Below, in pieces: positions 1 to 55,039 of a stretch of 64,000 nt of DNA (positions within the stretch are counted from its first letter, which is position 1; the number at the start of each line of letters is the position of its first letter). The stretch lies in contig JAYUQS010000131.1 in the NCBI GenBank assembly GCA_043756645.1, positions 7,158-71,157 on the forward strand, given 5' to 3'. Below the pieces are notes generated by a model, which worked only from the letters and a program-made list of their open reading frames with translations, was not told where the DNA came from and did no database searches. The stretch is from Hyphomicrobiales bacterium (lineage in GTDB: Bacteria; Pseudomonadota; Alphaproteobacteria; Rhizobiales; Aestuariivirgaceae). The position numbers and the translations under genes are program-made.

Positions 1-328
1 TGCCGATGTAAACCTGAACGGGCCTGCCGCCGTGGTTTCCTTACCGACTTCGCAGTGGTAAGCTGGTGCCGCCGACCGTAAGACCACCACCTGGGCCGTG
101 GTTTCCTTACCGACTTCGCAGTGGTAAGCTGGCTTTTGCTTCGGCAACTACATCAACCACGCCGTGGTTTCCTTACCGACTTCGCAGTGGTAAGCTAAAA
201 CCCATGTGCCATGCCACGGCTACGGCGCCGTGGTTTCCTTACCGACTTCGCAGTGGTAAGCTTCCGAAAGTGTATTTCAATAAGCAAGTCGGGCCGTGGT
301 TTCCTTACCGACTTCGCAGTGGTAAGCT
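1..328 (+). CRISPR. Type II-C CRISPR array, leader/cas2-proximal end; continues beyond the left edge of the window
   Basis: Five identical 36-nt repeats GCCGTGGTTTCCTTACCGACTTCGCAGTGGTAAGCT at 29-64, 95-130, 161-196, 227-262 and 293-328. Unique 30-nt spacers at 65-94, 131-160, 197-226 and 263-292, plus a truncated spacer at 1-28. The + strand crRNA polarity is inferred from the tracrRNA anti-repeat and a TGnTAAGCT extended -10 at each repeat 3' end. Confidence 0.99.
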
Positions 329-384
329 CGCTCCCGTCCAAGACGCTGAAAACGTTAAAATATTCCCTCTTAATGGGAAGAGTT

Positions 385-723: not shown

Positions 724-1607
724 TCCAAATGCGGTAACTCCAATAACAGCGGTGACGAACTTTCCATGGCCCGTACCAAAGACGCTGCCGCCCGTTCAGT
801 TGATATCAGTACACTGACGGTTTCAGCGCCGAACTTCACATCTTCATGCAAAATTCCGGCCAGTGCCCGGCGTTCCGAAATGACCAATTCACCAGATTTT
901 CGTGTGCCATTATCGGACAGCTTGAAAACCTTCGCATCGACCAGCGGGCGAAACGGCTCAAACAGATCATCAGCCAGATTGAAAGCATTTGCAGCGCTTT
1001 CATGAAACAATCCGAAGCAGGGCAACAAACCGGATGCAACAAGGGCGCGGGCGATGGCTGAGCGGATAATGGCATAGCCATAGTTTAGCATGGCGTTACG
1101 CAAATCAGTTTCATCGCTGCGGATGAAATCATCAAACAGGGTGGACCAATACTCCCGGGCAGCGCGGGCCTCGGTGTTTTCAGTGTCACCTGATGTGACA
1201 AATTTGGCGATTGCCGCAACCACTGTTCCGTCCCGACCACAAACGTCCAAACACGCAGCCTGATTTTCAATCTTGGCAATGACAAGAGATTGCCAAAGAC
1301 GCTTCTTCAATGGCAACGAAAGACCAATCTGCATCGCTGCCACCGCCGCTTGTCGATGATGGGTGTGGAAGGGAAGCGCTATGCCCGAAGGCGTGTGGCG
1401 TTCATCGGTAAAGATGATGGCCACGCCCATGTTCATACAAGCCGACACCAGTGACACGGAAAGTGTTGAATGATTGGAATCCAAAACAATCCAAGCCACA
1501 TCCTCCAGCGGCATGGCCACGTCACCCTCATCCTGCGCAACACAAAGCTGTTGGTCTTTATAACTCAGCCTTGCGGGTTTGGAGATATGCACACCTTTCC
1601 ACGCCAT
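720..1607 (-). CDS. cas1: Type II CRISPR-associated endonuclease Cas1
   Basis: 295 aa; EARAAREYW, NAMLNYGYAIIRS and LFHE..NAFNLADDLFEPFRP motifs; ATGA overlap with cas2. Confidence 0.97.
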   Translation of the reverse strand: MAWKGVHISKPARLSYKDQQLCVAQDEGDVAMPLEDVAWIVLDSNHSTLSVSLVSACMNMGVAIIFTDERHTPSGIALPFHTHHRQAAVAAMQIGLSLPLKKRLWQSLVIAKIENQAACLDVCGRDGTVVAAIAKFVTSGDTENTEARAAREYWSTLFDDFIRSDETDLRNAMLNYGYAIIRSAIARALVASGLLPCFGLFHESAANAFNLADDLFEPFRPLVDAKVFKLSDNGTRKSGELVISERRALAGILHEDVKFGAETVSVLISTERAAASLVRAMESSSPLLLELPHLE

Positions 1608-4600
1608 GTCCGCTCTTCGCTTTTGATTTCATTCAAACGACCTAGCCTGTCTACACTAAACTTTTTGATGGAATTCAAAGTTTTGCTCCCGACTTTCGAT
1701 GAGAACTCAAGATTGTTTTGGTGATAGGATACTCGCATTCCAGCGTCGTTTCTGTTCACATCTCTGAAGTATCCCGCGATGACTTCACCATCAGATTTCA
1801 CCATTTCAATGTAGGCCATTGGTTCGATGGGAAAGATGTATTCGTATGAGGAGTCCAATGAAGGCCACTCGTGTTCATCTTTATGTGCAAGCATAGCCTT
1901 TTTGGGCGGTAATTGGTCAGTTGCAATTTGGTGCGGGTAAACTGGAACCAAATAGTGGTTCCATTTTCCATTGGGCTTTTGTTTTCTGAACACATCCACC
2001 CGAGCCATGTCGCCCCGATCCACAGCACCCTTGCGTACAAATACTTCCGGCTTCCTTTTCGAAAGTAAAGCGACTTTCGAAATAGGATCACCTTTAGGTG
2101 ACAAGGGTGGTTTATCTCCAGGTTTACCCAGCAAAATCCAATTGTGAAGGGAGTCAATTACAGCGGCATTGCGCTCGGGGTCTTTGACATTTTCAAGATC
2201 TTTCTCCGTCAAATTTGACACTTGTTTGCGCTCAAAAACTTTGGCCTCACCGTTCACTTCGGAAATCGAACGGATTGTAGCATCATGTGCCTTTCCTCTC
2301 GCACGATGCCTCTCCGCACGTGAGACAAAAACACCCTCAACTTTCTTCATCACTTCATCCCTGAACCCCGGCCAAGGTTGGTCCAGTGCGCTGAAATCTC
2401 GCGGACTTCCAATTGCTTCCTGCTTTTGAAATGCCCGCGTTAAAACCTGCATCATGCCTTCAGTTGTCGCCGCAGTGATGACGGCATCCAGCGCATGGTG
2501 TCGATCATCGGGAATGCGTTGCCCTGTCTTTTCGTCCTTCTTCATCCACTGTACGCCCCAGCCACGCCGCAATCGATCTGTCAAAGCGCCCGGCCTCGTG
2601 AACACTTTGCGGTCTCGTTTGTCTTTTGGATAAAGCTGCTTCAAGCATTCCGCCAAAAGGCGGCAAGCCCAGCGGGTGTCATTCAAGTTTCGCGTTAGAA
2701 ATTTTCCCTCAACGCTTGCGGCATCCCTAATGGTATAGTTGCGACGTTTGTAGCCTTTGAGTGCGGGCAGGGCCTTTACGCGGGCTTCAAGCGCTTCCCA
2801 GTCAGTTTCGCTCTTGTCTTTGCTGAACCATTCAAAAGGTGTGCGCCCGCGCTTTTCCTGATTTGCCTTTGCTGTGCAAAGTGTTTTGTTGTTGAAGCTG
2901 TCATCGCCAAAGCGGCTCCAAGGCAGAATGTGATCGACCTGCACTGAATTGTCGGTTGCAACTACTTGGCTGGGGCTGATGTACTCATCGCTGTAGACAC
3001 ATTTTCCGTTTTGCTGCTTCCAAAGCTCAAAGCGCATAAGCTCATTGGCTGATGTGCAAGGTTGGCCAACCTTGTCTGCAAATTCCAAACGCAACTTGTC
3101 TTTTTCCTTGTTCCGCCTCTCAATGCCGTTTTCAATTTCACGACGTTCGTCAATACCTTTTCCAATGTCGCGGGCCAATTCGATGTGAATGGCGTCAGGG
3201 ATACCATGCACTTCAACAATGGCCTTCACCTGCTTGACGGCTTCTATCAGTGCTTTCCTGGCTGTGGGGCTGCCGACCGAGTGACGATTAATCCGTTCAC
3301 CGGAAAGAATTTTCTTCAAAGCTTCTTTGCCGTGAATACCAACATCGAAGGCATGACGCTCTCGGCTGTCGGTGTGATCATAGTTGCACTTCTTTGCGGC
3401 GTCAGAATAAACGAGGGTCTGCGCCAAATGCGGAATCATATTACGGCAAGCGAGTGATGATACATTCCCAGCGCCCGTGAATTTGATGAATGTATTTCCG
3501 TTTGTCGCATCCATGAGAGCTTCAATGACAACTGGCTCAAGTCCGATTTCATTCAAGCCGGAACGAATGTTTGTGAGGTCTGAGCGGAACGAAATAACCT
3601 CCGCAATGCGGTCCAGTTTTTCCGGTGTTTTGACGAGGGAATCCCAAGCTGCACCTTTGAGCAAGGTATGCAAGGTGCCGGCACCTTCTGCCGCGTTTCC
3701 GCTGCGTGCCACCGCATCAAGTTTTTCGTCTTCAAAGCGCACACTTGCAAAGCTTGCAGCATCCGAAAGTTTCCAGAGATTTCGGAGCGTGGTGTAAGAA
3801 ATCTTTTTTGTCGATCCGAAATTGCTTGTAGCTATTGCAAGTTCTTCGGCAGTAACGCGTCTCCGGTCGCGCCCTTCGCGGATTTCAAATGTGTTGAGCC
3901 GCGATAGAAAACGAAACAACTCAAATGAGTAACCGCGTTTTGATGTTCGCTTCTCCTTTGTTTCGAAAGCGCAGTTTGCCAATAGTTTTTCGCTATCTTG
4001 CAAACCGCGTTGGTGAAACGGTGCATTTTCTCGCGTTTCATCAAGATATTCGGCTTCCAGTTCGCGTGTCGCAAATTTTGAACCCAGTCGGCGTTGTGTG
4101 CTAAAGATTGCGCGGACTTCCGCGGCAAGGTCGGCACGTTGTGGGGTGCGGGAAAAGTCGCTTTCTTTATTACGTTTTCGGTCTGCAAAAGTGGGGTCAG
4201 TTGCAATCGTCTCGCCAAACGTGCGGCCTGCAAACTTTTCCTGTGTTTGCGCCATGGCCTTTTTCATTTTTGAACCTTCGACGTCATTTTCTCCTTGCGA
4301 TTTGGCATTGGATTTGAAGCCTCGATGACGGGCAATGTGTCCTAGTGCTATGGCCAGTTCTTTGGCGGTCAAAAGTTTCTGCGTCGCTTTGGCCCTTGCG
4401 TCCCAAGGATTGACGCCTTGAAATTTCAAAGCGTCTTGTTTCGCATCCGGCAACAAACCATGATGTTGCAAAAGTTTGCGCACACCATTCATACGTTGCC
4501 TCCTCCGCCGGATTATGCGCCGTTGCCCCCGGAATGTCCGCCTCGCTTCAGACTTGAGCTTTGGGCCGGATTGAGTTGCCTCTTCCGGCGAGTCAAACAT

Positions 4601-4708
4601 GCGGGTGCCGCAAGCGATGATTGATCCGGTCGTTTCCGCCGCATCATATTCCAACACCGCCCACCCAACACTCGCAATTCCGCAATCAAGTCCCAGAACC
4701 TTTGGCAT
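1565..4708 (-). CDS. cas9: Type II-C Cas9 (~1047 aa); catalytic motifs appear intact
   Basis: RuvC-I LGLDCGIASVGWA, Arg-rich bridge helix, RuvC-II IHIELAR, HNH VDHILPWSRFGDDSFNNKTLC, RuvC-III RHHALDA. No csn2 or cas4. Start placed at MPKVLG (4708) because the longer ORF-track start runs into the tracrRNA. Confidence 0.97.
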   Translation of the reverse strand: MPKVLGLDCGIASVGWAVLEYDAAETTGSIIACGTRMFDSPEEATQSGPKLKSEARRTFRGQRRIIRRRRQRMNGVRKLLQHHGLLPDAKQDALKFQGVNPWDARAKATQKLLTAKELAIALGHIARHRGFKSNAKSQGENDVEGSKMKKAMAQTQEKFAGRTFGETIATDPTFADRKRNKESDFSRTPQRADLAAEVRAIFSTQRRLGSKFATRELEAEYLDETRENAPFHQRGLQDSEKLLANCAFETKEKRTSKRGYSFELFRFLSRLNTFEIREGRDRRRVTAEELAIATSNFGSTKKISYTTLRNLWKLSDAASFASVRFEDEKLDAVARSGNAAEGAGTLHTLLKGAAWDSLVKTPEKLDRIAEVISFRSDLTNIRSGLNEIGLEPVVIEALMDATNGNTFIKFTGAGNVSSLACRNMIPHLAQTLVYSDAAKKCNYDHTDSRERHAFDVGIHGKEALKKILSGERINRHSVGSPTARKALIEAVKQVKAIVEVHGIPDAIHIELARDIGKGIDERREIENGIERRNKEKDKLRLEFADKVGQPCTSANELMRFELWKQQNGKCVYSDEYISPSQVVATDNSVQVDHILPWSRFGDDSFNNKTLCTAKANQEKRGRTPFEWFSKDKSETDWEALEARVKALPALKGYKRRNYTIRDAASVEGKFLTRNLNDTRWACRLLAECLKQLYPKDKRDRKVFTRPGALTDRLRRGWGVQWMKKDEKTGQRIPDDRHHALDAVITAATTEGMMQVLTRAFQKQEAIGSPRDFSALDQPWPGFRDEVMKKVEGVFVSRAERHRARGKAHDATIRSISEVNGEAKVFERKQVSNLTEKDLENVKDPERNAAVIDSLHNWILLGKPGDKPPLSPKGDPISKVALLSKRKPEVFVRKGAVDRGDMARVDVFRKQKPNGKWNHYLVPVYPHQIATDQLPPKKAMLAHKDEHEWPSLDSSYEYIFPIEPMAYIEMVKSDGEVIAGYFRDVNRNDAGMRVSYHQNNLEFSSKVGSKTLNSIKKFSVDRLGRLNEIKSEERTWRGKVCISPNPQG

Positions 4709-4736
4709 GGTTGTCCCTTTGCTGCTGTCACCACTC

Positions 4737-4765
4737 TTGACGCTAGCAATAAACATGCCTAGGTT
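4737..4765 (+). promoter_or_regulatory. Sigma70-like promoter for tracrRNA
   Basis: TTGACG (4737-4742), 17 bp spacer, TAGGTT (4760-4765). The predicted TSS near 4772 coincides with the start of the anti-repeat match. Confidence 0.65.
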
Positions 4766-4771
4766 GAAGAG

Positions 4772-4890
4772 GCGAAGTCGGAAGGGAAACCACGGCAAGG
4801 ATTTGAACCCTTGTGGTTCCTAATCTGAAGGATTACCCCTGTTCGGGAAACCGGGCAGGGGGATTCCCCCGCCGCTCACTCAATTCATCG
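4772..4890 (+). ncRNA. tracrRNA: tracrRNA (3' end approximate)
   Basis: 4772-4796 GCGAAGTCGGAAGGGAAACCACGGC matches the repeat reverse complement at 23/25. It is followed by a nexus-like AAGG and hairpins, e.g. CCCTGTTCGG-GAAA-CCGGGCAGGG. Confidence 0.9.
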
Positions 4891-12293: not shown

Positions 12294-12307
12294 CAGTTTT
12301 TCCCTTT

Positions 12308-15828: not shown

Positions 15829-15838
15829 GATTTTCCTT

Positions 15839-17238: not shown

Positions 17239-17267
17239 GGTGCCTCCTTGTTGGAGGCTTATTCGTA

Positions 17268-17315
17268 GTGAGTTATTTATAACCCGTCAAGGGGTATGGG
17301 TTAAAAATAACGTTC
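17268..17315. promoter_or_regulatory. PL promoter with two repressor operators (OL)
   Basis: GTGAGTTA-N4-TAACCCGT (17268-17287) and ATGGGTTA-N4-TAACGTTC (17296-17315); minus-strand -35 TTGACG at 17290-17285. Confidence 0.7.
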
Positions 17316-17326
17316 CACGTGAAACA

Positions 17327-18022: not shown

Positions 18023-18230
18023 TGATCTTTTCGTTGGCGGTGATTTGCAGCCATTGCGGATAAACCGTTGCGGCCACCACCAGCGTGATCAGCGTCCAGC
18101 CGATCCATGACATGTTGGGTAACCAAAAACTGACGCCAAAAGCCACGGCCAAACCAAGGCCGAAGCTTCCAAACGCGATTTTCTCCGAGCCTTTCAGCGT
18201 GAACTTACGAGGTGTTTTGCCTTGGTCCAA
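17991..18230 (-). CDS. Small two-TM membrane protein downstream of cI
   Basis: Two hydrophobic helices; GGGAGG RBS before TTG at 18230. Confidence 0.65.
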   Translation of the reverse strand: MDQGKTPRKFTLKGSEKIAFGSFGLGLAVAFGVSFWLPNMSWIGWTLITLVVAATVYPQWLQITANEKIIDRGDWPNKE

Positions 18231-18258
18231 TGGAGTACCTCCCGTTTGAAAGCTCAAC

Positions 18259-19026: not shown

Positions 19027-19106
19027 GGGTAAAATATAACCCTGAACAGCTTTTGTTGCGCCTTGATAAAAATATTCTTGACTGTGAGTTATTTCTAACC
19101 CACATT
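19025..19106. promoter_or_regulatory. OR region: PRM/PR with operators
   Basis: ATGGGTAA-N4-TAACCCTG (19025-19044) and GTGAGTTA-N4-TAACCCAC (19084-19103). The second fills the spacer of PR: TTGACT 19078-19083, CACATT 19101-19106. Confidence 0.75.
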
Positions 19107-19113
19107 GCGGCGC

Positions 19114-19392
19114 ATGAACTACCGTCAACATCTGATCACCCTCATCGAAACCTTTGCAACGGCCAAGGGCATTTCACCCTCGCGTGTCGGCCAAACCTTG
19201 TTTTCCAGCGGTGCCAAATACGCACAATTGGTGGCTGGCGCTGACATCAACGTCGGTCGCTTTGAGGATGCTGTGAAATATCTCGACGCCCATTGGCCCG
19301 CTGATGCGGTGTGGCCTGAGGGTTTGCCGCGCCCATCACTGATCGCCGATGCCAAATCACTCGGCACCCCTGAAACCGTGGAGGCTGCATAA
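19114..19392 (+). CDS. cro: Cro-like regulator
   Basis: Small HTH-like protein divergent from cI, ending WPADAVWPEGLPRP, typical of alphaproteobacterial phage Cro-like proteins. Confidence 0.75.
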   Translation: MNYRQHLITLIETFATAKGISPSRVGQTLFSSGAKYAQLVAGADINVGRFEDAVKYLDAHWPADAVWPEGLPRPSLIADAKSLGTPETVEAA

Positions 19393-19396
19393 CATG

Positions 19397-19675
19397 TCAG
19401 TGTTTGGTCACATAAGCAGCGGATTGCAAAATTTTCGCCGAAAAATCTTCCAGATACTTGAGGGTAAGTTCTGCTTGCTGTCGCGTTTCTGCGGGCGCTT
19501 CTCGCGCCGCCCTGCTGAAACTGCGGGTGACGTTGGTCATGAGGGCTTGTACGCGTTCCGGCCCACCTTCCGGCTCGACGTAAAGCGCCATCATGATTTG
19601 CAACAGCAAAACCTCGTGAACCGCAGCGCGGGCTTCGAGGGCTGCTACATCTGTCTTCAAACTGGTTGTCGTCAT
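19397..19675 (-). CDS. Hypothetical protein antisense to the early-right operon
   Basis: AAGGAGA RBS before MTTTSLKTDV; 92 aa, helical. Confidence 0.6.
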   Translation of the reverse strand: MTTTSLKTDVAALEARAAVHEVLLLQIMMALYVEPEGGPERVQALMTNVTRSFSRAAREAPAETRQQAELTLKYLEDFSAKILQSAAYVTKH

Positions 19676-19769
19676 CAGGGTCTCCTTTGGCAACATGTTG
19701 CCAAAGACGGTAGAGGCGGATTGCACATTCCGCAAGACTGGCTGGACCGCGCTGTAAATCGGGTGTCGC

Positions 19770-20027
19770 ATGTCTGAGAACTGGAAAGCCCGCCACCCCT
19801 TCAAAATCGGCCAGACGGTTTATGCCCGTGAGGCCCATGTGTTGGAAAGCTTCGCGCTGTTTTTGACGGCCGGAAAATCCTACCGCATCGCCATGCTGGG
19901 CGAGGACCGTTACGGCCCCTGGGCTATGATTGAGGGCATTGTTGAATGTCTGCCGGTGCGGCTGCTTCAAGCTGATGCGCCACCCGTGATGATCGCCGTC
20001 TCCGAAGATATGGAAGAGGTGGCGTAA
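19770..20027 (+). CDS. Hypothetical phage protein
   Basis: 85-aa ORF in the rightward early operon. Confidence 0.55.
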   Translation: MSENWKARHPFKIGQTVYAREAHVLESFALFLTAGKSYRIAMLGEDRYGPWAMIEGIVECLPVRLLQADAPPVMIAVSEDMEEVA

Positions 20028-20253
20028 ATGAAGTCCGTTGCGATGTTGTCTCAAACTTCTCGCAACGGCACCTGTGGCAGCGACAGTCCCTTCGCTGTGC
20101 CTTTGGGTTTTGCGCTTCATTGCATCCATCGGCGTTTCCTCCCTGACTTGGCCGGAGTGGTGGTTTTTAAACCCCGCCATTCCGGTTTTTTTCAAGGATC
20201 ACACTAGCACCACCCGTTCACCAGTCTTGGGAATTACAGGAGGCACCCATCCC

Positions 20254-20772
20254 ATGTCGCAGACCATTTCACACCGTCAAATTCCAAAGCGCGAAGCCGA
20301 TGCGCTGAAAGCTGCATCGCATAGTTTGGTTGAAGCCTCAGGCGGCGTTATCAAAGCGGCGGGGCATACGCAAAGCAGCCCGTCTCGGCTGTCCGAAGCC
20401 GTGTCGCCCTGGCATGAAAACCGCTGGCTCTCACTCATCCATGTGGCCGATCTGGAATGTGTGGCGGGCGCTCCGCTGGTCACCCGCGTGCTGGCCCAAA
20501 TGGCGGGTTATGATCTGGTGTCGCAATTAGAAAATGCGCGGCCACAGGATTTTCACCAGCATCTGGCCCACATCATCATTGAAACGGGTGACGTTGAAAG
20601 CCATCTGGCCAAGGCCTTGGAAGATGGTACGGTCACCCGCGCCGAAGCTTTGCAGGGCTTACGCGAAACACAACAGGCCATCGCGCGGTTGCAAAATCTG
20701 GAAGCGGATTTTCGCCGCATTGCGAAAGTCGATGTCAAATCACCTGTCAGCTTGGCGGCGGTGAAACCATGA
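20254..20772 (+). CDS. CII-like phage regulatory protein
   Basis: ALKAASHSLVEASGG...LE...GAPLVTRVLAQMAGY...ALEDGTVTRAE pattern; AGGAGG RBS; lies after cro. Confidence 0.65.
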   Translation: MSQTISHRQIPKREADALKAASHSLVEASGGVIKAAGHTQSSPSRLSEAVSPWHENRWLSLIHVADLECVAGAPLVTRVLAQMAGYDLVSQLENARPQDFHQHLAHIIIETGDVESHLAKALEDGTVTRAEALQGLRETQQAIARLQNLEADFRRIAKVDVKSPVSLAAVKP

Positions 20773-21344
20773 GTTCCACACTGGATTTTCGTTGGAGCGA
20801 CGTGGCCATCACAAAGGTAACCGACTATCTGAAGCAGGGGCTTTCGGCTGGTCAGATCGCCAAGCACTTGGGGTGCAGCCGGAATGCGGTAATTGGCAAA
20901 GCACACAGGCTTGGTTTGCATCTGGGTGCGGGGGTCTCGACGCCCTCACAAAAAAAACCTGTCCCGCGCAAAGTCTCATTGCCTGATGGACATTGGCCTA
21001 AGGTTTACACGCCACCGCCTGAGAAAAACAACAGCCGCATGATGGCGGATAATGCTTTGCGCGCCCGCATCAAAAGGCGCGAGGCGATTGAGCGGGGTGA
21101 GGTGGCACCGCCGAAAGCGCCGGTTTCGATGAGGGCGTTTCTGCCAGGCTATCAAGGTCAAGAGGCGCGCGTATCCAGCGTGCTGACATTGACGTCCGGT
21201 GATTGCAAGTTCCCGATTGATCTGGACGGCGGTGGCACCGGCTTTTGTGGTGACACCCGCGAAGAACACACGTCTTATTGCAAAGCCCATGCCTTGCGCT
21301 GTTTCAACCCCAACTCCGCTGCCATGCGGAATCGTTTTTCATGA
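20769..21344 (+). CDS. gcrA: Phage GcrA-family transcription regulator
   Basis: WSD...GLSAGQIAKHLGCSRNAVIGKAHRLGL and C-terminal LT..DCKFPI...FCG...YCKAH Zn motif. Confidence 0.88.
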   Translation: MSSTLDFRWSDVAITKVTDYLKQGLSAGQIAKHLGCSRNAVIGKAHRLGLHLGAGVSTPSQKKPVPRKVSLPDGHWPKVYTPPPEKNNSRMMADNALRARIKRREAIERGEVAPPKAPVSMRAFLPGYQGQEARVSSVLTLTSGDCKFPIDLDGGGTGFCGDTREEHTSYCKAHALRCFNPNSAAMRNRFS

Positions 21345-21350
21345 GGTGAT

Positions 21351-22067
21351 GTGATGGCTTTTGTAAAATTGATCACGGTCAAGGTGGTTGGCATAACGGG
21401 GGCGTTTCGGTTTAGTAAAAAAGGCAAGGGCATGTTCTTTGTGTCAATGCCATCGGTCATCGCCGGTAAAGCGTGGGATGCGTTTGGGCGCTGCGACATT
21501 GCTGTGGGCGAGGGCGATGACGCTGGCCTGATTCAGATCGCCGCGCATGCTGCGGGGATGTTCAAAATCGGGCGCTTGAAAACCGCACTTGTGTTTCGCG
21601 TGCCACCACAGATCGCATGGGTAGGGGGGGCGTTTGATCCCGTTGCACTTGAAACCGTGGAAAATAAAAATGGTGCGTTGGTGTTGCGGCTGCCGAAACA
21701 ATTGTTCGAAGCACTGACGTTTAATCAGGATGGAAAGCCAACGCCGCATCTGCTGCGTGCGCGTCCTGAGGATCGGATTGTTCCGCCTGCTGCAAAGCCG
21801 GGGGAGCGTCCAAAGCTCTCGATCATCGGCACCACGGTGGAGCTGGGTAAGGCCCGCGTCAAGCTGTCGATGCCGCAATTTAAATTATTTTCAGCCTTGT
21901 GGAAGGCGTGGGGGGAATCCGTGCGCAGCACCGCCCTGCAGGTGGCGATGGGTAATGATGATCACAATCTCGTCAAGGTGTTGGCAACACTCGGCAGGGA
22001 TGTCGAACCGCTTGGCTTGATGATCGAGGTTGTGAGCGGCGGTTACAAACTGATGCTGAAAGCTTAA
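21351..22067 (+). CDS. Hypothetical protein with C-terminal winged-helix (OmpR-C-like) domain
   Basis: VKLSMPQFKLFSALWKAWGESV...GGYKL C-terminus. Confidence 0.55.
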   Translation: MMAFVKLITVKVVGITGAFRFSKKGKGMFFVSMPSVIAGKAWDAFGRCDIAVGEGDDAGLIQIAAHAAGMFKIGRLKTALVFRVPPQIAWVGGAFDPVALETVENKNGALVLRLPKQLFEALTFNQDGKPTPHLLRARPEDRIVPPAAKPGERPKLSIIGTTVELGKARVKLSMPQFKLFSALWKAWGESVRSTALQVAMGNDDHNLVKVLATLGRDVEPLGLMIEVVSGGYKLMLKA

Positions 22068-22071
22068 CGCC

Positions 22072-22671
22072 ATGAGCTTGCACGGTCCCGCTGTCACCAC
22101 GTCTGATATTTTTTACACGCCCGCCCATGCGTCAAACTCACTGCTGGCCTATGCCGATGATGTCGGCCTGTTTCCCAAGAGCGGTAAAATCTGGGAGTGT
22201 GCGGCGGGGCAGGGTCACGTCGCCCGCGTTCTGGCGTCGCGTGGCCATCAGGTTTTGGCCACAGACATTGTGCGGCCGTCCACCTCGGTTTATCCCGTTG
22301 GACAGAAGGATTTTCTCAGCGGTGATGCACCGTCGGGCAAGACCCTCTCCATCGTCACCAACCCGCCCTATGGGCAATCGTCAAAACTCATCATCGCATT
22401 TCTTCAGCGGGCGTTTGAGCTGATGTGCACCAAAAACGGTGCCATCGCCATGCTGGTGCCGTTTGAGTTTGATGCGGCTTGGACCCGCGCTGATCTGGTG
22501 GGTGATCACCCATGGTTCGTCGGCAAGGTCACCTGCAAGCGGCGCATTCGTTGGCTCAATATTCCACAAGTTGAAAACGGTCCGATGGGGTGTCACTCCT
22601 GGCTGTGTTACTCCAATGAACTGGCGGTCATCCGCCGCGCAAGGGCTTTGCCATCGATGGTGGTACGATGA
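22072..22671 (+). CDS. Orphan DNA methyltransferase (N6-adenine type)
   Basis: FYTP, IWECAAGQG SAM-binding motif, IVTNPPYG catalytic motif. Confidence 0.85.
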   Translation: MSLHGPAVTTSDIFYTPAHASNSLLAYADDVGLFPKSGKIWECAAGQGHVARVLASRGHQVLATDIVRPSTSVYPVGQKDFLSGDAPSGKTLSIVTNPPYGQSSKLIIAFLQRAFELMCTKNGAIAMLVPFEFDAAWTRADLVGDHPWFVGKVTCKRRIRWLNIPQVENGPMGCHSWLCYSNELAVIRRARALPSMVVR

Positions 22672-22904
22672 TGGCAAAATCCTGTTTGGTCGCGGGTTGC
22701 ACTGGTAATCCGTCGTTCGGCTGGGGCTTGCCCAGCTGGCGTTCCGGCATCCGTTGGGCGTGTCGCAACCACAAATCACTTTTGAATGCCGCCGTCACGG
22801 GTGCCTCTGTGGCGGCGGTTCAGGTGGCCTCGCAACGCGGGGGCGATTTACCCGTTGCGGGGTCACCATCCATTCCGGCACCACGACAAGGGAGCTTGTT
22901 GTGA
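22668..22904 (+). CDS. Small Cys/His phage protein
   Basis: CLVAGC...SFGWG...WACRNH; overlaps neighbours. Confidence 0.6.
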   Translation: MMAKSCLVAGCTGNPSFGWGLPSWRSGIRWACRNHKSLLNAAVTGASVAAVQVASQRGGDLPVAGSPSIPAPRQGSLL

Positions 22905-23176
22905 TGCAAGCTCCTACCCGTGAAACCTCGTTTGAGATGATCATCAGCAACCCGCTGTTCAAGCGCGGTTATGAACATGGCTGGTCGGGCGAGGAACCCA
23001 TGAACGACCGGGGTTGGATGCCGCATGAAGAAGAGGCTTACGAACGCGGTCGCCAATTCGCCGCCTGGCTGATCGGTGAACGCGAACAGCGCGTGGCGCT
23101 GACACGCGGATATCTGGTGCACCCACGGGCGGAAACCCTGTTGATGCGCGCGATGCATCTGGGCGAGGTGCGGTGA
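22904..23176 (+). CDS. Hypothetical phage protein (gene A of the duplicated block)
   Basis: 90 aa; its 3' third is repeated at 23830-23933. Confidence 0.65.
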   Translation: MQAPTRETSFEMIISNPLFKRGYEHGWSGEEPMNDRGWMPHEEEAYERGRQFAAWLIGEREQRVALTRGYLVHPRAETLLMRAMHLGEVR

Positions 23177-23520
23177 TGAAGGTGACTACCGAAAAACAGT
23201 TGTCGGCGCATGATGTGTTGAAGATGCGTTCTGACAGTCAGCGGGCGGTTTTGGATGCGATGCATTTTGTGCGAGCGCGTCACAATATTTCCGGTGCGTC
23301 TGTGCATTTGTTGTTTCTCTCGCAAATAGTGAATGTTTTCCAGTTGGTTAACCCGTTGGCAACGCAGGAGTTGTTGCGGTGCATGGTGGAAATTCACGCA
23401 GTGCGAGAAAACAAAGACGCGCTCGATACCGTCATTTTAGAATTCGACGCGGTCCAACGCTGGATGTTGCAGTCCTTCGACCTGTTTTATGCACAGCCTG
23501 AAAACGGGGGGCATGCATGA
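23173..23520 (+). CDS. Hypothetical phage protein, allele B1
   Basis: Ends FDLFYAQPENGGHA; paralog of 23927-24274. Confidence 0.7.
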   Translation: MMKVTTEKQLSAHDVLKMRSDSQRAVLDAMHFVRARHNISGASVHLLFLSQIVNVFQLVNPLATQELLRCMVEIHAVRENKDALDTVILEFDAVQRWMLQSFDLFYAQPENGGHA

Positions 23521-23930
23521 CCTTCGACCCCGCTATGGATGATTGGGTGAACCGTGCCCGCGCCGCTGATATCTGGTCGGTGCTGGACCGTTTGCCTGTA
23601 CCGCATACGCTGAAGCTGCGCGGCCACAAGACGGTGGGGCCTTGCCCGGCCTGTGGCGGGCATGACCGCTTCTCGATGGACCGGCGCAAGGGCATTTTCT
23701 TTTGCCGCCGCTCGGCCACCGGGGGCGATGCCATTGCCCTTGTGCAATATCTGACGGGGGCGGATTTCTTCGGTGCTGTTGAAACCATCACCGGCGAGGC
23801 ACCGCCACGCGGTGAACACGGTATTAAAAGTGAATGCGAACAGCGCGTGGCGCTGACACGCGGATATCTGGTGCACCCACGGGCGGAAACCCTGTTGATG
23901 CGCGCGATGCATCTGGGCGAGGTGCGGTGA
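23517..23930 (+). pseudogene. Chimeric ORF: primase Zn-finger N-terminus fused in frame to the gene-A C-terminus
   Basis: MTFDPAMD...GPCPACGGHDRF...PPRGEHGIK followed by EQRVALTRGYLVHPRAETLLMRAMHLGEVR; produced by the duplication junction near 23829. Confidence 0.75.
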
Positions 23931-24274
23931 TGAGGGTTTTGACAGAAAAGGATCTCGGCGCTGACGCTGTTGAGGCATTGAACAAAGAGTGTGTCGATAT
24001 TCTGCTGTCCGCCATGCGGCACATGCAAAGGCGTCACGATGTCAGTGTGCCGTCTGCTCATTTGATGTTCATTTCACGACTGATCGGGTTTGTGCAGTCG
24101 ATTGATCCGGTGTCAACCGACGCCATGTTGCGGGCTTTCACGGCCATTCATGCGGCATCTGAAGATCTGGTGGAACGTGAAGCGGCCAATGCTGAACTCG
24201 GCAAAGCGCAAGACAAACTGTTGCTGGCCTTCGACCTGTTTTATGCGCGGCCTGAAAACGGGGGGCATGCGTGA
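23927..24274 (+). CDS. Hypothetical phage protein, allele B2
   Basis: Ends FDLFYARPENGGHA; same length as B1 but strongly diverged internally. Confidence 0.7.
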   Translation: MMRVLTEKDLGADAVEALNKECVDILLSAMRHMQRRHDVSVPSAHLMFISRLIGFVQSIDPVSTDAMLRAFTAIHAASEDLVEREAANAELGKAQDKLLLAFDLFYARPENGGHA

Positions 24275-25473
24275 GTTTTGATCCCGCCATGGATGAGTGG
24301 GTGAACCGCGCCCGCACCGCTGATATCTGGTCGGTGCTGGAGCGTTTGCCGGTGTCACACGCACTTAAACTGCGCGGCCAGAAAACCGTGGGGCCTTGCC
24401 CGTCTTGTGGCGGTAAGGATCGCTTCTCGATGGACCGGCGCAAGGGCATTTTCTATTGCCGCCGCTCGGACAAGGGCGGCGATGTGATTGCGCTTGTGCA
24501 ATATCTGATGGGGGCTGATTTTCTCGGTGCCGTCGAAACCATCACCGGCGAAGCACCGCCACGCGGTGAACACGGTATCAAACAGGATCGCGCCCTCATC
24601 GAACAGCGCCGCCTGGAACGTCTGGTCGACCAGCAGCGCCGTGATGCTGGGGCTGTGGATTATCGCCAACGCGAAATCGACAAGGCTGCCAAAATCTGGC
24701 GTGAGTCCTTGCCGCTCACAGGTTCGCCGGCTGAATCATATTTGGCATTGCGTGGGTTGGTGGCTCCTGCGGGTGCGCGGCTGCGCTGCCATCCCGCATT
24801 GAAATTCTGGCATTGGAGTGAAGCTGAAAAGCAATTCCGCGTGCTGCATGTGGGGCCCGCCATGGTGGCGCGGATGGATGACAATGCCAACCGTTTTTGC
24901 GGGGCGCATTGCACGTATATCGATTTGTCAAAGCCCAAAGGCAAAGCCGAAATCGTCGATCCTGAAAGCGGTGAAGTGTTGGCTGCCAAAAAGATGCGGG
25001 GGTCTAAAAAGGGTTGTCACATTCACCTCAGCGGCGATCCTGCAACGGCCACGGCGCTCAAGATCGGTGAGGGCAATGAAACCGTGTTGTCAGTGCATAA
25101 TGAAATGCTGCTGGCGGGCAGGGATATTTCAAAGCAGTTGTTCTGGACCTCATGTGACCTTGGCAACCTCGGTGGGCCGGGCGTGGCAACCGTCAAACAC
25201 CCGACTTTGACCCGCACCGATATCAAGGGCCGTGTGCGGGCTTTGAAGGTGCCGGGCCCCGATCCGGCTTGGCCTCAAGGTGAGGGGATATTGATGCCGC
25301 CTGATAATGTCCGCCACATCACCATTCTGGGCGACGGTGACAGCGACCGTTTCTCAACCGAACAACATGTGAAACGCGCAGGCTCCCGTTGGGCCAAACC
25401 GGATCGTGTCATCGCAGCCGCCTGGGCCCCGGTGGGCCTTGATTTCAACAATCTGAAAATGGGGCAAGCGTGA
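24271..25473 (+). CDS. DNA primase (Zn-finger plus Toprim)
   Basis: GPCPSCGGKDRF Zn finger; KIGEGNET and ILGDGD Toprim motifs. Confidence 0.85.
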   Translation: MSFDPAMDEWVNRARTADIWSVLERLPVSHALKLRGQKTVGPCPSCGGKDRFSMDRRKGIFYCRRSDKGGDVIALVQYLMGADFLGAVETITGEAPPRGEHGIKQDRALIEQRRLERLVDQQRRDAGAVDYRQREIDKAAKIWRESLPLTGSPAESYLALRGLVAPAGARLRCHPALKFWHWSEAEKQFRVLHVGPAMVARMDDNANRFCGAHCTYIDLSKPKGKAEIVDPESGEVLAAKKMRGSKKGCHIHLSGDPATATALKIGEGNETVLSVHNEMLLAGRDISKQLFWTSCDLGNLGGPGVATVKHPTLTRTDIKGRVRALKVPGPDPAWPQGEGILMPPDNVRHITILGDGDSDRFSTEQHVKRAGSRWAKPDRVIAAAWAPVGLDFNNLKMGQA

Positions 25474-27254
25474 CTGGCGACACCCCAAACCCCATTCTCG
25501 ATGCACTTGATCAGGCGCAGCCAGTCAATGCTGAACCCTCCGCACCTCCGCACCATCACGAGGACATCGAAGACCCGGGCGAACAGGAAGCGCCATCCGA
25601 TATCAATTGGGATTTGCTGCGGCTTTGTGTCAATGAATTGCAAAACGATATCGGCAATTCATGGCGGCTGCGGCATCGCTTTGGTGGTAATTTAATCCAC
25701 ATTCAAAACGTCGGTTTTTTCGCCTGGGATGGAAAACGTTGGGCTGAAGACACCGATCTCCGGCAAGCAAAACCCATGTGCCATGCCACGGCTACGGCCA
25801 TCGCGCTTGAGGCGATTTTGATTGTGCCGTCGGACAAGGAAAGTGCGGCAATCGAATTGGGCGAAGCTGCGGCCGCCGCCGTGCAAGATGCGCACAAGCG
25901 CATGCGCGAATTGGCGTTGCAGGATTTAAAACCGAAAGACCGGAAACAGCGGGCCGACGAAATCCGCATGGAGATTGATGCGGCACGCGATGAAATTGCC
26001 GATGGCCGCAAAGCGCAAGCCGCTGTGCAGGCACGCCGCGCCAATCGCCGTCGCTTCTCCATCTCATCGGGCAATGCCGGAAAGCTGAACGGCATGCTCG
26101 ACCAGGCGCTACCCTATTTGTCACGCCCCATTCTCGACATGGACGTTGATGCTTATGCCCTCAATGTCGGCAATGGGACGCTGCGCTTTACCGAGCGGGC
26201 TGATATTGCCGGGCGGTGGCAGGTTGATGTGAAACCCCATGCCCCCACCGACATGATCACCAAACTGGCGGATGTGGACTATAACCCGCAAGCCAAGGCT
26301 CCGGTGTTTCATAAATTCCTGAGTGAGGTTTTGCCCAACGAAAACGTGCGGGGCTTCCTGCAGCGGTATTTTGGCTATAGCCTGACAGCGCTGACCTCGG
26401 AACAGGTGTTTGCCATTTTGCATGGAGAGGGGCGCAACGGCAAATCCACGCTGGTCGATATTATGGCCAAAATCTTGTCGGATTATTCAACCTCGATTCC
26501 CATCGCCACACTGGTCAACGACAATCGTGCGGGCAAGGGCAGTGAGGCCACGCCGGATCTGGCGCGATTGCCCGGTGCACGTCTGGTGCGCTCGGCCGAA
26601 CCGCGTGAGGGCTTGTCATTCGATGAGAGTCTGATCAAGGGTTTGATTTCGGGTGAGCCTTTGCCGGTGCGGCGCTTGAACCAAGATTTCATTGATATTT
26701 ACCCCACCTTCAAATTGATCATTTCCGTCAATCGCAAGCCCACCATCAAGGGCAATGACGATGGCATCTGGCGGCGGGTGCGGCTGGTGCCGTTTGAGAT
26801 ACAGGTCGAGGTGGGCAAGGAAGACAAAAGCCTGCCGGAAAAGCTGTGGGATGAACGCTCCGGCATTCTGAATTGGATGATTGAGGGGGCGCTTGATTAT
26901 TTCGAGCGCGGCGGCCTCGATGCGCCGGAAGCGGTGTTGATGGCAACGCAGGAATATCGTGACGAAAGCGATCTGGTGGGCAGCTTCGTGCGCGCCGCCC
27001 TCGACATCACCAACGAGAGTTACGACCAAATGGAAACGGGAGCGCTTTACAACGCCTTCATTGCCTATGCCAAGCGGCAAGGTGTGCCCCTGATGAGCGG
27101 CACCACCTTTGCCCGCCGCATGCCAAGGACCGCCAGCCAATTCGGCATCCTCAAGGGAAAGTCATCACTCACGGTTTATTCCGGCATCAAACTGCGGCCA
27201 GAGTTCGAGATGCATCACGCGTCGCCCTCACACACCCACGAGGATGAGCGATGA
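25470..27254 (+). CDS. P4-family phage primase/helicase (D5-like SF3 helicase); contains the CRISPR protospacer
   Basis: HGEGRNGKST Walker A, PDLARLPGARLV, GIWRRVRLVPF. Confidence 0.92.
   Translation: MTGDTPNPILDALDQAQPVNAEPSAPPHHHEDIEDPGEQEAPSDINWDLLRLCVNELQNDIGNSWRLRHRFGGNLIHIQNVGFFAWDGKRWAEDTDLRQAKPMCHATATAIALEAILIVPSDKESAAIELGEAAAAAVQDAHKRMRELALQDLKPKDRKQRADEIRMEIDAARDEIADGRKAQAAVQARRANRRRFSISSGNAGKLNGMLDQALPYLSRPILDMDVDAYALNVGNGTLRFTERADIAGRWQVDVKPHAPTDMITKLADVDYNPQAKAPVFHKFLSEVLPNENVRGFLQRYFGYSLTALTSEQVFAILHGEGRNGKSTLVDIMAKILSDYSTSIPIATLVNDNRAGKGSEATPDLARLPGARLVRSAEPREGLSFDESLIKGLISGEPLPVRRLNQDFIDIYPTFKLIISVNRKPTIKGNDDGIWRRVRLVPFEIQVEVGKEDKSLPEKLWDERSGILNWMIEGALDYFERGGLDAPEAVLMATQEYRDESDLVGSFVRAALDITNESYDQMETGALYNAFIAYAKRQGVPLMSGTTFARRMPRTASQFGILKGKSSLTVYSGIKLRPEFEMHHASPSHTHEDER
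25769..25798 (+). other. Protospacer of spacer 197-226
   Basis: AAAACCCATGTGCCATGCCACGGCTACGGC, 30/30 identical; 3' flank CATCGCGC. Confidence 0.99.
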
Positions 27255-52149: not shown

Positions 52150-52318
52150 TCTGTTGTCGCCATTGCCGTCTGAATTGGCGCGGCCATGCGTTGATCCTGG
52201 TCTGTCAAAACCGCTTGATCCACCGCGCGATCTGACACGTCATCGTGCAGCCTGGGCCGCATGCGAAGACACCCGCGCTGATCTGGCTGAGTTTTACCAA
52301 CAGCTGCGCGGCAAGTAA
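52031..52318 (+). CDS. o-spanin lipoprotein (Rz1-like)
   Basis: Overlaps Rz in another frame; lipobox VSGC; Pro-rich. Confidence 0.75.
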   Translation: MFKIPTSSSARAMCALCLMVIVSGCSAFLPASVVVQSPADLLSPLPSELARPCVDPGLSKPLDPPRDLTRHRAAWAACEDTRADLAEFYQQLRGK

Positions 52319-52456
52319 TTCCGGCCACGCCGGAACGCGGTCAGCCCTGTGCCGCAGCTCATGGGGCAAGTGGTGCTTTAAGTGGAATTTCTGTCGCATG
52401 AATATTGAGTGAAGACCAGAGTCCGTGGACTCGATACGCATACCCTGTTTTGACTT

Positions 52457-52494
52457 GGCCCCCCATCCTTCACCGGATGGCGGGGCCTTTTTTT
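52457..52494 (+). terminator. Rho-independent terminator ending the late/lysis operon
   Basis: GGCCCC-CCATCC-TTCACC-GGATGG-CGGGGCC followed by T7. Confidence 0.85.
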
Positions 52495-52544
52495 GTCGGT
52501 CGGGTTTGTCGCAAATCGGACCTGTTTTGTGATTGAAATAAGTG

Positions 52545-52573
52545 TTGACACCTGCATCATGATGATGCATCTT
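52545..52573 (+). promoter_or_regulatory. Promoter of the candidate acr-aca operon with palindromic operator
   Basis: TTGACA (52545-52550), 17 bp spacer, CATCTT (52568-52573); perfect inverted repeat TGCATCAT-G-ATGATGCA at 52553-52569. Confidence 0.8.
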
Positions 52574-52625
52574 AAATCCACGAACAGCAGCAATCGTGCA
52601 GCGGTTCCCTCCGATGGAGACAAAA

Positions 52626-52823
52626 ATGACTTACGCCACAGAAAAACAAATCTGGTTTATCAAGAAGCTGGCTGTTGAAATCGGCTTTTCTGGCAAGATT
52701 GAAGCGCTTGACGCTTACGGTTTCGTGCCCGGCCAACATATGTCGATTTCAGACGCTTCACTGGTGATCGACTGGTTGAAGTCGGGTGAAGCCGCCCGCT
52801 TTCTCGTCGCTCAAGCCGCTTAA
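52626..52823 (+). CDS. Candidate anti-CRISPR protein 1 (65 aa)
   Basis: GGAGA RBS; first gene upstream of the aca2-like gene; no recognised family. Confidence 0.6.
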   Translation: MTYATEKQIWFIKKLAVEIGFSGKIEALDAYGFVPGQHMSISDASLVIDWLKSGEAARFLVAQAA

Positions 52824-52834
52824 GGATTTTGAAA

Positions 52835-53065
52835 ATGAACATCGAACTCATCACTTATAACGACTGTCGTGAGCCTCAGGCCCACATCGCCCGAACCTGC
52901 AACTGCACCACAGATGGTTTTGTTCCGAACTTCACTTTTGAAGCTGAAAAAATGGGAGTTGAAGCCGTTACAGTTTTTAAATCCAAGCGGCGTATGAAAC
53001 GTTTTTTGGCGGGAAGGGGTTATAAAACCTTCCGTGAAATCAGCCATACTGTATATTCGGTATGA
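52835..53065 (+). CDS. Candidate anti-CRISPR protein 2 (76 aa)
   Basis: TAAGGA RBS; AT-rich; stop overlaps the aca-like start (ATGA). Confidence 0.6.
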   Translation: MNIELITYNDCREPQAHIARTCNCTTDGFVPNFTFEAEKMGVEAVTVFKSKRRMKRFLAGRGYKTFREISHTVYSV

Positions 53066-53433
53066 CCCCCGCTGAATTTGACACCCGCCGCCGTCTTCTT
53101 GGTCTTTCGATTGAAGAAACGGCGGAGTGGTGTGGAGCCAACCGCGTGACGGTGCAGCGCTGGACAAAAGGCCAATCGCGCATTGACCCACGCGCCATTG
53201 ACAGGCTTGAAGAACTGGAAGACGGCATGGCAGCAGCAGTAGAGCGAGCGGTGGCCACGGTCAAAAATCACAACGGCCCCGTGCCGCTCTTCCGTTATCG
53301 CAGTCAAGCAGCGGTTGACGCGGCACCTCACGCGTCGGGAATGCCTCTGGGTGCTCACGCCATTCTAATCGGTTGGACCGCCGATGCCTTGGAAGATGCA
53401 GGGCATGCCGTTGAAATCGTCTGGGGTGATTAA
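53062..53433 (+). CDS. Aca2-like HTH regulator (DUF1870/YdiL-type)
   Basis: MTPAEFDTRRRLLGLSIEETAEWCG...VQRWTKGQSRI HTH, plus C-terminal PLFRYRS...H...GW segment, matching my recollection of the Aca2 two-part architecture; 123 aa. Confidence 0.75.
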   Translation: MTPAEFDTRRRLLGLSIEETAEWCGANRVTVQRWTKGQSRIDPRAIDRLEELEDGMAAAVERAVATVKNHNGPVPLFRYRSQAAVDAAPHASGMPLGAHAILIGWTADALEDAGHAVEIVWGD

Positions 53434-53453
53434 GTGGCGTTTCCGAGTAGCGA

Positions 53454-53678
53454 TCATTTTGGTTGATCTTTCTTTTTGGGGATGCACCAATACTCGGCAG
53501 GATAGGGTCTTTGCCGCGTTGGGTATAGCGGCACCACCTCTACATAACCGCCTGTCGCTACGCAGTGTTCTGTGAATGCTGTTAACTGCTTTAGCTCTTT
53601 TTTTCCGAGGACAACGATCAGAAATATCCCTGATACCACCAGGCTGACTACAATTGCACTGTATTGCCGTCCGGTCAC
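53454..53678 (-). CDS. Small membrane-anchored protein next to attR (74 aa)
   Basis: N-terminal TM and a Cys pair; GTG start directly follows the attP-form integrase stop codon. Confidence 0.55.
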   Translation of the reverse strand: MTGRQYSAIVVSLVVSGIFLIVVLGKKELKQLTAFTEHCVATGGYVEVVPLYPTRQRPYPAEYWCIPKKKDQPK

Positions 53679-53719
53679 TTACGCCACCTTACCGATTAGA
53701 ACGAAGGTGGGGGCTTGAC

Positions 53720-53741
53720 CAACTCCCTCTCCCGCTACCAT
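53720..53741 (+). repeat. attR core (tRNA-Met 3' fragment)
   Basis: Identical to 7620-7641. Confidence 0.95.
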
Positions 53742-53746
53742 TTCTT

Positions 53747-55039
53747 CTAAACAATGCCGGAAGACGAACCTGCTATGGCAGGGCGTTCGCTGGTTTTCGC
53801 CGCACGATAACCTGAGGCGCGGTAGCAGCTCCACGGGTGCAGGGCACCACCTTTGCGTTTGCGGGCCTCGCACATGATAGAGGTGACGTCGGAATTAAAT
53901 GCGGTTTTGAGCAGGCGGTGCGCACCCATGACATCGCCGCTGTTTTGCAGGTCAGTGAGCTTGGCGCGATCGATGATGAGCGCCTTGGCATAAGCCCTTG
54001 TGATTTCCATTGCAGAGCCCATCAGACTCTCAATTGGGTCAGTGACGTTGTGGGATTGGTCAATCATGTAAGCGGGATTAAAGCCTGGGGCTTTGCGGTG
54101 TTCGGCATCGACCAATTCGTTGAACACAAGGAACAGTCGGAAGGGATCAACCGAACCTGAGTCCAAATCATCATCGCCATATTTCGAGTCATTGAAATGG
54201 AAGCCCGCGAGTTTTTTCGCATGAACAAGCCGTGCTACAATTTGTTCAATATTGGTGTTGGGCGCATGGTGGCCCAAGTCCACGAGGCATTTGGCTTTTT
54301 CGCCCAGCTCTTGGGCGGCCATAAGGCTTGATCCCCAATCAGATATGACTGTTGAGTAAAACGCAGGCTCATACATTTTGTGTTCGAGGAATACGTCCAT
54401 GTTTTTGGGCAGTGCGTCGTAAATGGTGCGCAAGCTATCGAGGTAATGATCGAATACTTTGGTGAGGTTTGATTGTCCGGGGAAATTGGAGCCATCTGCT
54501 ATCCAAACTGTCAAAGCGTTGGAACCCAATTGCTTGCCAATTTCGATACATTCAATGTTGTGTGCGACCGCCTGTTCACGCGTGGCTTTGTCCGCATGAG
54601 TAAGGGAGCCGAATTTATAGGACAGCTTTTGATTGGCCTGATCTTGGAAGGTGTTGGAATTCACCGCGTCAAAGCCCAATTCATATTGCGACGCTTCCTG
54701 CTTCAATGCGCGATAGTCAGACACCTTGTCCCACGGAAAATGCGGGGAGACATTGGGTGTATGACGCGTGAGTTGGTTGATCACACCGCAGTCTTCCAAC
54801 TTGTCATGAATATTGCGTGGTTCACCGGGCCCCGGGAAGCGGGCAAAACGTGTGCCACCGGTGCCAACACCCCAAGTGGGTACGGCCACGGCATAATCCA
54901 TGACCTTGGTGGTTATGGTTTCAATGTTGATGCCACTGCGCTCCAACTGGCGGGCAAGGTGCGCATAGTCCTCATCATGTGCCGCTTGCGACTTGGCATT
55001 GTGGTTGGCGATGAAGTCGGAGGAGATCGAAAAAGTCAT
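53747..55039 (-). CDS. rhaI: L-rhamnose catabolism isomerase
   Basis: PTWGVGTGGTRFARF, EHKMYEP, DLGHH and HFNDSKYGDDDL motifs. Confidence 0.93.
   Translation of the reverse strand: MTFSISSDFIANHNAKSQAAHDEDYAHLARQLERSGINIETITTKVMDYAVAVPTWGVGTGGTRFARFPGPGEPRNIHDKLEDCGVINQLTRHTPNVSPHFPWDKVSDYRALKQEASQYELGFDAVNSNTFQDQANQKLSYKFGSLTHADKATREQAVAHNIECIEIGKQLGSNALTVWIADGSNFPGQSNLTKVFDHYLDSLRTIYDALPKNMDVFLEHKMYEPAFYSTVISDWGSSLMAAQELGEKAKCLVDLGHHAPNTNIEQIVARLVHAKKLAGFHFNDSKYGDDDLDSGSVDPFRLFLVFNELVDAEHRKAPGFNPAYMIDQSHNVTDPIESLMGSAMEITRAYAKALIIDRAKLTDLQNSGDVMGAHRLLKTAFNSDVTSIMCEARKRKGGALHPWSCYRASGYRAAKTSERPAIAGSSSGIV

Follow-up and report, generated by a model that had tools for sequence, protein, structure and literature searches.

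How does a lysogen persist when the only CRISPR-Cas system detected in its genome carries a spacer that perfectly matches its own prophage? This question is raised by a window of 64,000 nucleotides from a Hyphomicrobiales bacterium (GenBank assembly GCA_043756645.1, contig JAYUQS010000131.1), in which a type II-C system and a prophage lie close to each other (Table 1). Here, we describe ORF2, a near-orphan gene at the right end of this prophage, as a well-founded anti-CRISPR candidate. We propose that ORF2 is cargo of an Aca2-controlled anti-defence operon and most likely acts as an anti-CRISPR against the host Cas9, a reading to which we assign a probability of roughly 40%; that ORF2 has an anti-defence role of some kind is probable. 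The simplest account of the locus is that the operon supplies an inhibitor that allows the lysogen to live with a Cas9 directed at the prophage it carries. The acr-aca2 operon type is already known; what is new here is the near-unique ORF2 as a candidate.

Judged by its sequence, the host II-C system is apparently intact. Its Cas9 is homologous to NmeCas9 (E 2e-109) and retains the RuvC-I, HNH and RuvC-III motifs, and its array has 11 repeats in all, the first of which begins 369 nt before the window. The locus lies ~7 kb to the left of the prophage and is the sole CRISPR-Cas system detected in the 92%-complete draft genome, in which there is one cas1 gene and one array. Two spacers match the prophage, spacer 9 over its full length and spacer 2 with a single mismatch. 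The tracrRNA anti-repeat fixes the reading direction of the array and, thus, identifies the 3' flank of the protospacers as the PAM side; in both of them, GCG occupies positions 5 to 7 of this flank (N4GCG). The host thus appears to be a self-targeting-tolerant lysogen, in which a perfect spacer against a resident prophage coincides with an apparently intact II-C system, and the self-target might also be tolerated for reasons other than an inhibitor. The mismatch of spacer 2 is at PAM-proximal position 29, with A in the spacer and G in the prophage; it resembles an escape mutation in the seed, a hint that Cas9 once exerted pressure on the phage. For the array, no further protospacer was matched in GenBank phages, and 400 related genomes gave chance-level matches only. 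Arrays with this repeat were present in none of the seven same-genus genomes sampled, but in a same-family genome (G363) and two same-order genomes (G229 and G373), an uneven occurrence indicating that the II-C locus is patchy in this lineage.

In the prophage, none of 41 other small ORFs matched a Pfam Acr family, and no solitary CRISPR repeat of the kind that serves as an RNA anti-CRISPR was found, the best match being 21/36. In the early region (9296-24278), Pfam matches comprise GcrA, SSB, a staphylococcal-nuclease homolog, DUF4326 and Peptidase_S24, and the GcrA-family gene points to an alphaproteobacterial host. The candidate operon ends about 290 nt before attR. Between the two, a 74-aa ORF on the minus strand (53454-53678) has a hydrophobic N-terminal segment (AIVVSLVVSGIFLIVVL) and may encode a small membrane 'moron'.

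Table 1. Coordinates of the features discussed; positions refer to the window except in the last row, where they refer to the respective related locus.
Feature	Position	Strand	Description
Type II-C CRISPR array	1..332	+	36-nt repeats, 30-nt spacers
cas1	720-1607	-	
cas9, type II-C	1565..4798	-	catalytic motifs intact
tracrRNA anti-repeat	4772..4796	+	23/25 complementary to first 25 nt of repeat
Prophage	7620-53741		46 kb, bounded by 22-nt att repeats
attL	7620-7641		22-nt repeat, tRNA-Met 3' end
Protospacer of spacer 2	21459..21488	+	29/30 match; 3' flank cgctGCGa
Protospacer of spacer 9	25769..25798	+	30/30 match; 3' flank catcGCGc
Terminator of lysis operon	52459..52484	+	GC-rich hairpin and T-run
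Putative Aca operator	52553..52569	.	perfect 8+1+8 palindrome, 17 nt
Leader hairpin CTCC-GAT-GGAG	52609..52619	+	covers ORF1 Shine-Dalgarno site
ORF1	52626..52823	+	65-aa first cargo gene of operon, rival Acr candidate
ORF2	52835..53065	+	76-aa near-orphan cargo gene, anti-CRISPR candidate
ORF3	53062..53433	+	123-aa HTH regulator of predicted Aca2/YdiL fold, translationally coupled to ORF2
attR	53720..53741	.	22-nt direct repeat of tRNA-Met 3' end
ATGTCCG-N5-CGGACAT palindromes	L001 3020-3038, L003 3720-3742, L005 3704-3722, L007 3401-3419, L008 3631-3649		

An earlier note on this DNA, made from the sequence alone, had described the gene 3' of ORF2 as aca-like, and both profile comparison and Foldseek agree with this description. 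ORF3 is predicted to be a genuine two-domain protein of the Aca2/YdiL fold, with an N-terminal HTH and a C-terminal dimerisation domain. Against the Pfam family Aca2_YdiL, ORF3 scores 22.4 bits, just under the cut-off of 23.8. A profile of the ORF3 family (24 members) matches five distinct sequences only in the PDB, and all of them are Aca2 (7ezy, 8w35, 7vjo and 7b5j) or YdiL (1s4k). The AF2 model of ORF3 has a pLDDT of 91, and its top 10 Foldseek matches are chains of Aca2, YdiL and SO3848 that align over the full length with a TM of about 0.7. Beyond these ten, E-values are a few hundred-fold higher, and the matches that fit well cover the HTH only. ORF3 belongs to a distant branch of Aca2 from alphaproteobacteria and is about 20% identical to solved Aca2 proteins.

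ORF1 and ORF2 lie on the same strand as ORF3 and immediately upstream of it, with a gap of 11 nt between them. Because a terminator closes the preceding lysis operon, the cargo operon is a transcription unit of its own. A -35 box (TTGACA, 52545-52550) is followed just 3' by a perfect palindrome (TGCATCATgATGATGCA), the putative Aca operator. By analogy, the candidate operon is built like published acr-aca2 operons, with a promoter and palindromic operator, small, fast-evolving cargo genes and, translationally coupled to these, a terminal repressor of the Aca2 fold. Downstream of the palindrome, a hairpin covers the first Shine-Dalgarno site (CTCC-N3/4-GGAGAC) not only in the window (52609-52621) but also in the related loci L006 (~3425-3441) and L007 (~3457-3473). 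It is kept in these three loci, the first cargo genes of which differ, and may belong to the regulatory module; binding of leader RNA is reported for Aca2 as well. A scan of positions 52300-53800 with Rfam gave nothing above threshold. ORF1 has one homolog, P0050, with 80% identity. ORF1 (MTYATEKQIWFIKKLAV...) and the first cargo gene of L007 (3474-3707; MNTVTEKQAALIRSLAV...) also have in common an N-terminal TEKQ..I..LAV motif; hhalign gives this pair a probability of 27% only, and the relationship is unproven.

The earlier note had placed ORF2 in the slot where acr genes most often lie, directly 5' of aca, and had asked whether it swaps with known acr genes there. We therefore compared the neighbourhoods of ORF3 homologs (44-52% identity) in ten loci from GTDB genomes, IMG/VR and JGI metagenomes. 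In all ten, a small ORF (46-111 aa) abuts or overlaps the start of the aca gene. In an all-against-all BLASTP comparison, the ten slot proteins, ORF2 included, are mutually unrelated, and each locus has one to three cargo genes. The slot protein of L005, from IMG/VR, is AcrIC5 (59.8 bits for Pfam PF22147, cut-off 27; E 9e-9 for PDB 7yhr, 'Anti-CRISPR protein Type I-C5'), an experimentally validated inhibitor (PMC7913775). Thus, unrelated small proteins do replace one another 5' of aca, and a validated acr gene is among them. Some cargo families recur at different positions, i.e., L001_a with L010_c and L001_b with L006_b, which points to shuffling of cargo. In one family shared by L001 (3094-3432) and L010 (3696-4001), with 31% identity over 67 aa (E 4e-5), the gene is third from aca in one locus and directly beside it in the other.

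A palindrome precedes the first cargo gene in every locus examined, and seven related loci have one at the equivalent place. It reads ATGTCCG-N5-CGGACAT, or a near variant of this, in L001, L003, L005, L007 and L008, and L002 and L010 have related forms. Together with the slot comparison, this describes an Aca clade with a conserved regulator, an operator and a hypervariable slot in which an acr gene has been proven once. Within this clade, in which the regulators are ~50% identical, the palindrome of the relatives differs from that of the window (TGCATCAT-N1-ATGATGCA), an apparent switch in operator specificity.

As AcrIC5 in a homologous slot also shows, this Aca clade can carry cargo against systems other than type II-C. 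It is, therefore, conceivable that ORF2 is an anti-defence protein directed against another system of other hosts, such as a different CRISPR type, restriction-modification or abortive infection, and that ORF1 or something else protects the prophage from the resident Cas9. The operon has two cargo genes to which such roles could be assigned, and the homologs of ORF1 and ORF2 occur separately, P0050 being on a 1,070-nt contig and having no ORF2 homolog with it in the database. Nevertheless, the II-C locus is the only CRISPR-Cas system that the host genome, at 92% completeness, was found to contain, and ORF2 resembles no known anti-defence family; on balance, we consider a target other than Cas9 rather unlikely.

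The same comparison bears on the idea that ORF2 and ORF3 are a toxin-first type II toxin-antitoxin pair in which ORF2 is the toxin and ORF3 the HTH antitoxin. The order of the genes, with a small basic protein first, an HTH protein second and a 4-nt overlap between them, resembles that of higBA and hicAB; the HTH part of ORF3 is weakly similar to the HTH domains of the MqsA, HigA and Xre antitoxins; and, by eye, the C-terminus of ORF2 recalls the 'L..G[WY]....R..SH' of HicA. However, ORF3 matches antitoxins over the HTH only but Aca2 over both domains, the HicA-like motif is not supported by any profile, and no toxin family of Pfam, NCBIfam or PADLOC matches either ORF2 or its homolog P0044 (see below). 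Moreover, a regulator whose partners are unrelated from locus to locus, vary in number and include a harmless Acr is unlike the HTH protein of a cognate toxin-antitoxin pair. We, therefore, regard a toxin function of ORF2 as very improbable and retain ORF3 as the Aca2-type regulator of a cargo operon.

ORF2 has the hallmarks of a translated gene. Its ATG at 52835 is preceded at a distance of 8 nt by a ribosome site (AAGGA, 52822-52826) that overlaps the TAA stop of ORF1, and its TGA stop (53063-53065) is part of an ATGA (53062-53065) that also contains the start of ORF3. A homolog, P0044, has the same N-terminus, MNIELIT, and because the two proteins share this start, the ORF2 frame is coding and its ATG is fixed. 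The GC content of ORF2 is 44.6%, compared to 57.1% for the prophage and 59.1% for ORF3. Hence the reality of the 76-aa gene, its AT-richness and the overlap of its stop with the start of the HTH gene, all asserted in the earlier note, are borne out. The GC3 of ORF2 is 45% with no codon-position bias, and chance ORFs of such a size are common (10 kb contain 132 ORFs of 30 aa or more), as might be expected if ORF2 had arisen by chance or were what is left of a gene decaying in the aca leader. Yet such an ORF would have to combine a good Shine-Dalgarno site and ATGA coupling with a 74-aa homolog of ~50% identity that is similar in length, starts in the same way and shares two conserved blocks with it, and we find a non-functional ORF2 scarcely credible.

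The relatives of ORF2 are exceedingly few. A word-seeded search of 5.8 billion proteins returned only ORF2 itself, while an exhaustive HMMER search of 1.84 billion cluster representatives returned six matches, one of which, P0044, is real. P0044 (74 aa, pI 10.0) aligns end to end with ORF2 with 48-51% identity (E 1.7e-13). The other five (P0043 and P0045-48; 428-3531 aa) were rejected because their scores are summed over up to 17 repeats and are an artefact. Accordingly, the designation of ORF2 as an orphan was nearly right, short of this one true homolog. P0044 and an Aca homolog with 63% identity to ORF3, P0013, come from the same source (Logan) with the same contig count of 2 and the same longest contig of 11,314 nt; from these identical contig statistics we infer that they are adjacent, very probably on the same 11,314-nt contig. 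No relatives of ORF2 were found by tblastn of GenBank phages and plasmids, by pattern scans of IMG/VR and JGI metagenomes, or in a six-frame search of 400 genomes of the same order, and the best score in a search of the ESM Atlas, 0.80, is at chance level.

The alignment with P0044 divides ORF2 into two conserved blocks and a variable middle. The first block (residues 1-17) has 13 invariant positions, and the second (residues 44-71) has 18, including AVTVFKSxRRMKRxLxxRGY, whereas residues 18-43 contain an indel and five invariant positions. The protein is basic overall (pI 9.2), with an acidic part (residues 1-45, pI 4.5) followed by a strongly basic one (residues 46-76, pI 11.5). Thus, the acidic N-half and basic C-half that had been pointed out earlier are both present. 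The emphasis on Cys did not survive: none of the three Cys residues (positions 11, 22 and 24) is conserved in P0044, which makes a metal site or a disulphide unlikely. From a two-sequence alignment, AF2 gave a poor model of ORF2 (pLDDT 51).

By sequence, ORF2 is outside all known Acr families, including AcrIIC1-5 and other solved Acr proteins. Neither ORF2 nor P0044 belongs to a family in Pfam, PHROGs, NCBIfam or PADLOC, and a phmmer search with ORF2 against all PDB chains gave no match at E-values up to 10. The Pfam model RecX_HTH3 was rejected as an assignment for ORF2 (E 0.0065, below the cut-off). Even so, a weak match to the three-helix repeat of RecX, together with the basic C-half, is what a non-defence 'moron' might show, e.g., a small nucleic-acid-binding or regulatory protein that rides in an Aca2-regulated slot, and Aca2-like regulators are also found in non-acr contexts (Usher et al., PMC8434428). 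We consider this alternative unlikely. The RecX match is at chance level and missing from P0044, the position and turnover of ORF2 fit anti-defence cargo, and, as ORF2 does not accompany the regulator from locus to locus, it is not part of the regulatory module.

We, therefore, return to ORF2 as the cargo of an Aca2-controlled operon that most likely counteracts the host Cas9. ORF1, ORF2 and the aca2-like ORF3 form a self-contained three-gene operon at the right end of the prophage, from which, we suggest, the anti-CRISPR would be made at a low level in the lysogen. ORF2 would then block the type II-C Cas9 that bears the perfect spacer against the prophage and, in that way, keep the lysogen alive. 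In structural terms, the two conserved blocks, a β-strand at residues 1-7 with REPxAH and a strand at residues 44-48 with the basic helix KSxRRMKRxLxxRGY, could make up a small α/β unit, the basic face of which may bind nucleic acid (the crRNA:tracrRNA or the target) or, on Cas9, an acidic surface. Inhibition would be stoichiometric. That the lysogen expresses ORF2, that Cas9 is what it targets and how it would inhibit are the inferred parts of this reading. The basic pI of ORF2 speaks against an anti-Cas9 function, as most characterised Acrs are acidic. In addition, ORF1 is an equal rival as the Cas9 inhibitor because it is equally placed in the same operon, and ORF2 need not be the inhibitor.

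If ORF2 is the inhibitor, it may found a new AcrIIC family, i.e., a basic 76-aa inhibitor of NmeCas9-like II-C Cas9 from an alphaproteobacterial prophage that acts via its conserved basic helix; we put this forward tentatively. Acidic DNA mimicry is typical of many Acrs. In ORF2, by contrast, the basic helix would have, e.g., the guide RNA duplex or DNA loading as its point of attack.

Type II-C Cas9 enzymes of the NmeCas9 class are compact genome editors, for which, to our knowledge, few inhibitor families are known. If ORF2 does found a new AcrIIC family, it is a possible off-switch for such editors. Both standard criteria of Acr discovery, guilt by association with an Aca2-type gene and a self-targeting host, single out this locus, and the association gains weight from a homologous operon whose corresponding slot holds a validated Acr. 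This leaves two tiny genes, ORF1 and ORF2, among which to look for the inhibitor. Beyond this locus, the distant alphaproteobacterial Aca2 branch with its own operator could seed further Acr discovery.

Several characterised systems resemble the locus in part. AcrIIC1-3, described by Pawluk et al. in 2016, are reportedly encoded on mobile elements of Neisseria meningitidis and inhibit the type II-C enzyme of the NmeCas9 type. They are carried by integrated elements, as is ORF2, and the Cas9 of the ORF2 host is a homolog of NmeCas9; ORF2 differs in having no sequence similarity to them and in residing in an alphaproteobacterial host. AcrIC5 (PDB 7YHR, PF22147; Leon et al. 2021, PMC7913775) occupies the same slot in L005, directly 5' of an ORF3 homolog with 48% identity and downstream of the same kind of palindrome. 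By contrast, it is unrelated in sequence to ORF2, acidic (pI 4.1 compared to 9.2) and an inhibitor of type I-C rather than of Cas9.

The regulatory arrangement has its counterpart in the acrIF8-aca2 operon of Pectobacterium phage ZF40 (Birkholz et al. 2019, PMC6765145), a temperate phage in which Aca2 uses an inverted-repeat operator, IR1, in the promoter, and in which cargo is followed by an autorepressor of the Aca2 fold. The operator of ZF40 has a TTCG-N6-CGAA core and differs in sequence from the palindromes of the window (TGCATCAT-N1-ATGATGCA) and of the related loci (ATGTCCG-N5-CGGACAT). The window operon further differs from that of ZF40 in having two cargo genes and in its likely target, type II-C rather than the type I-F system targeted by AcrIF8.

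The acrIIC4-aca2 locus of Haemophilus parainfluenzae and the acrIIC5-aca2 locus of Simonsiella muelleri (Lee et al. 2018, PMC6282205) are a close precedent. Compared to AcrIIC4 and AcrIIC5, ORF2 is basic, without similarity to any solved Acr chain and a candidate by context, and its ORF3 neighbour belongs to a distant alphaproteobacterial branch with ~20% identity to solved Aca2. The genes for AcrIIC4 (88 aa) and AcrIIC5 came to light in II-C hosts as small ORFs immediately 5' of aca2 orthologs. Like ORF2, both are small (~50-150 aa) and nearly orphan and are followed directly by an aca2-type gene, the mobile element that carries them resides in a host that has a type II-C Cas9, and AcrIIC4, as ORF2, has a single known homolog.
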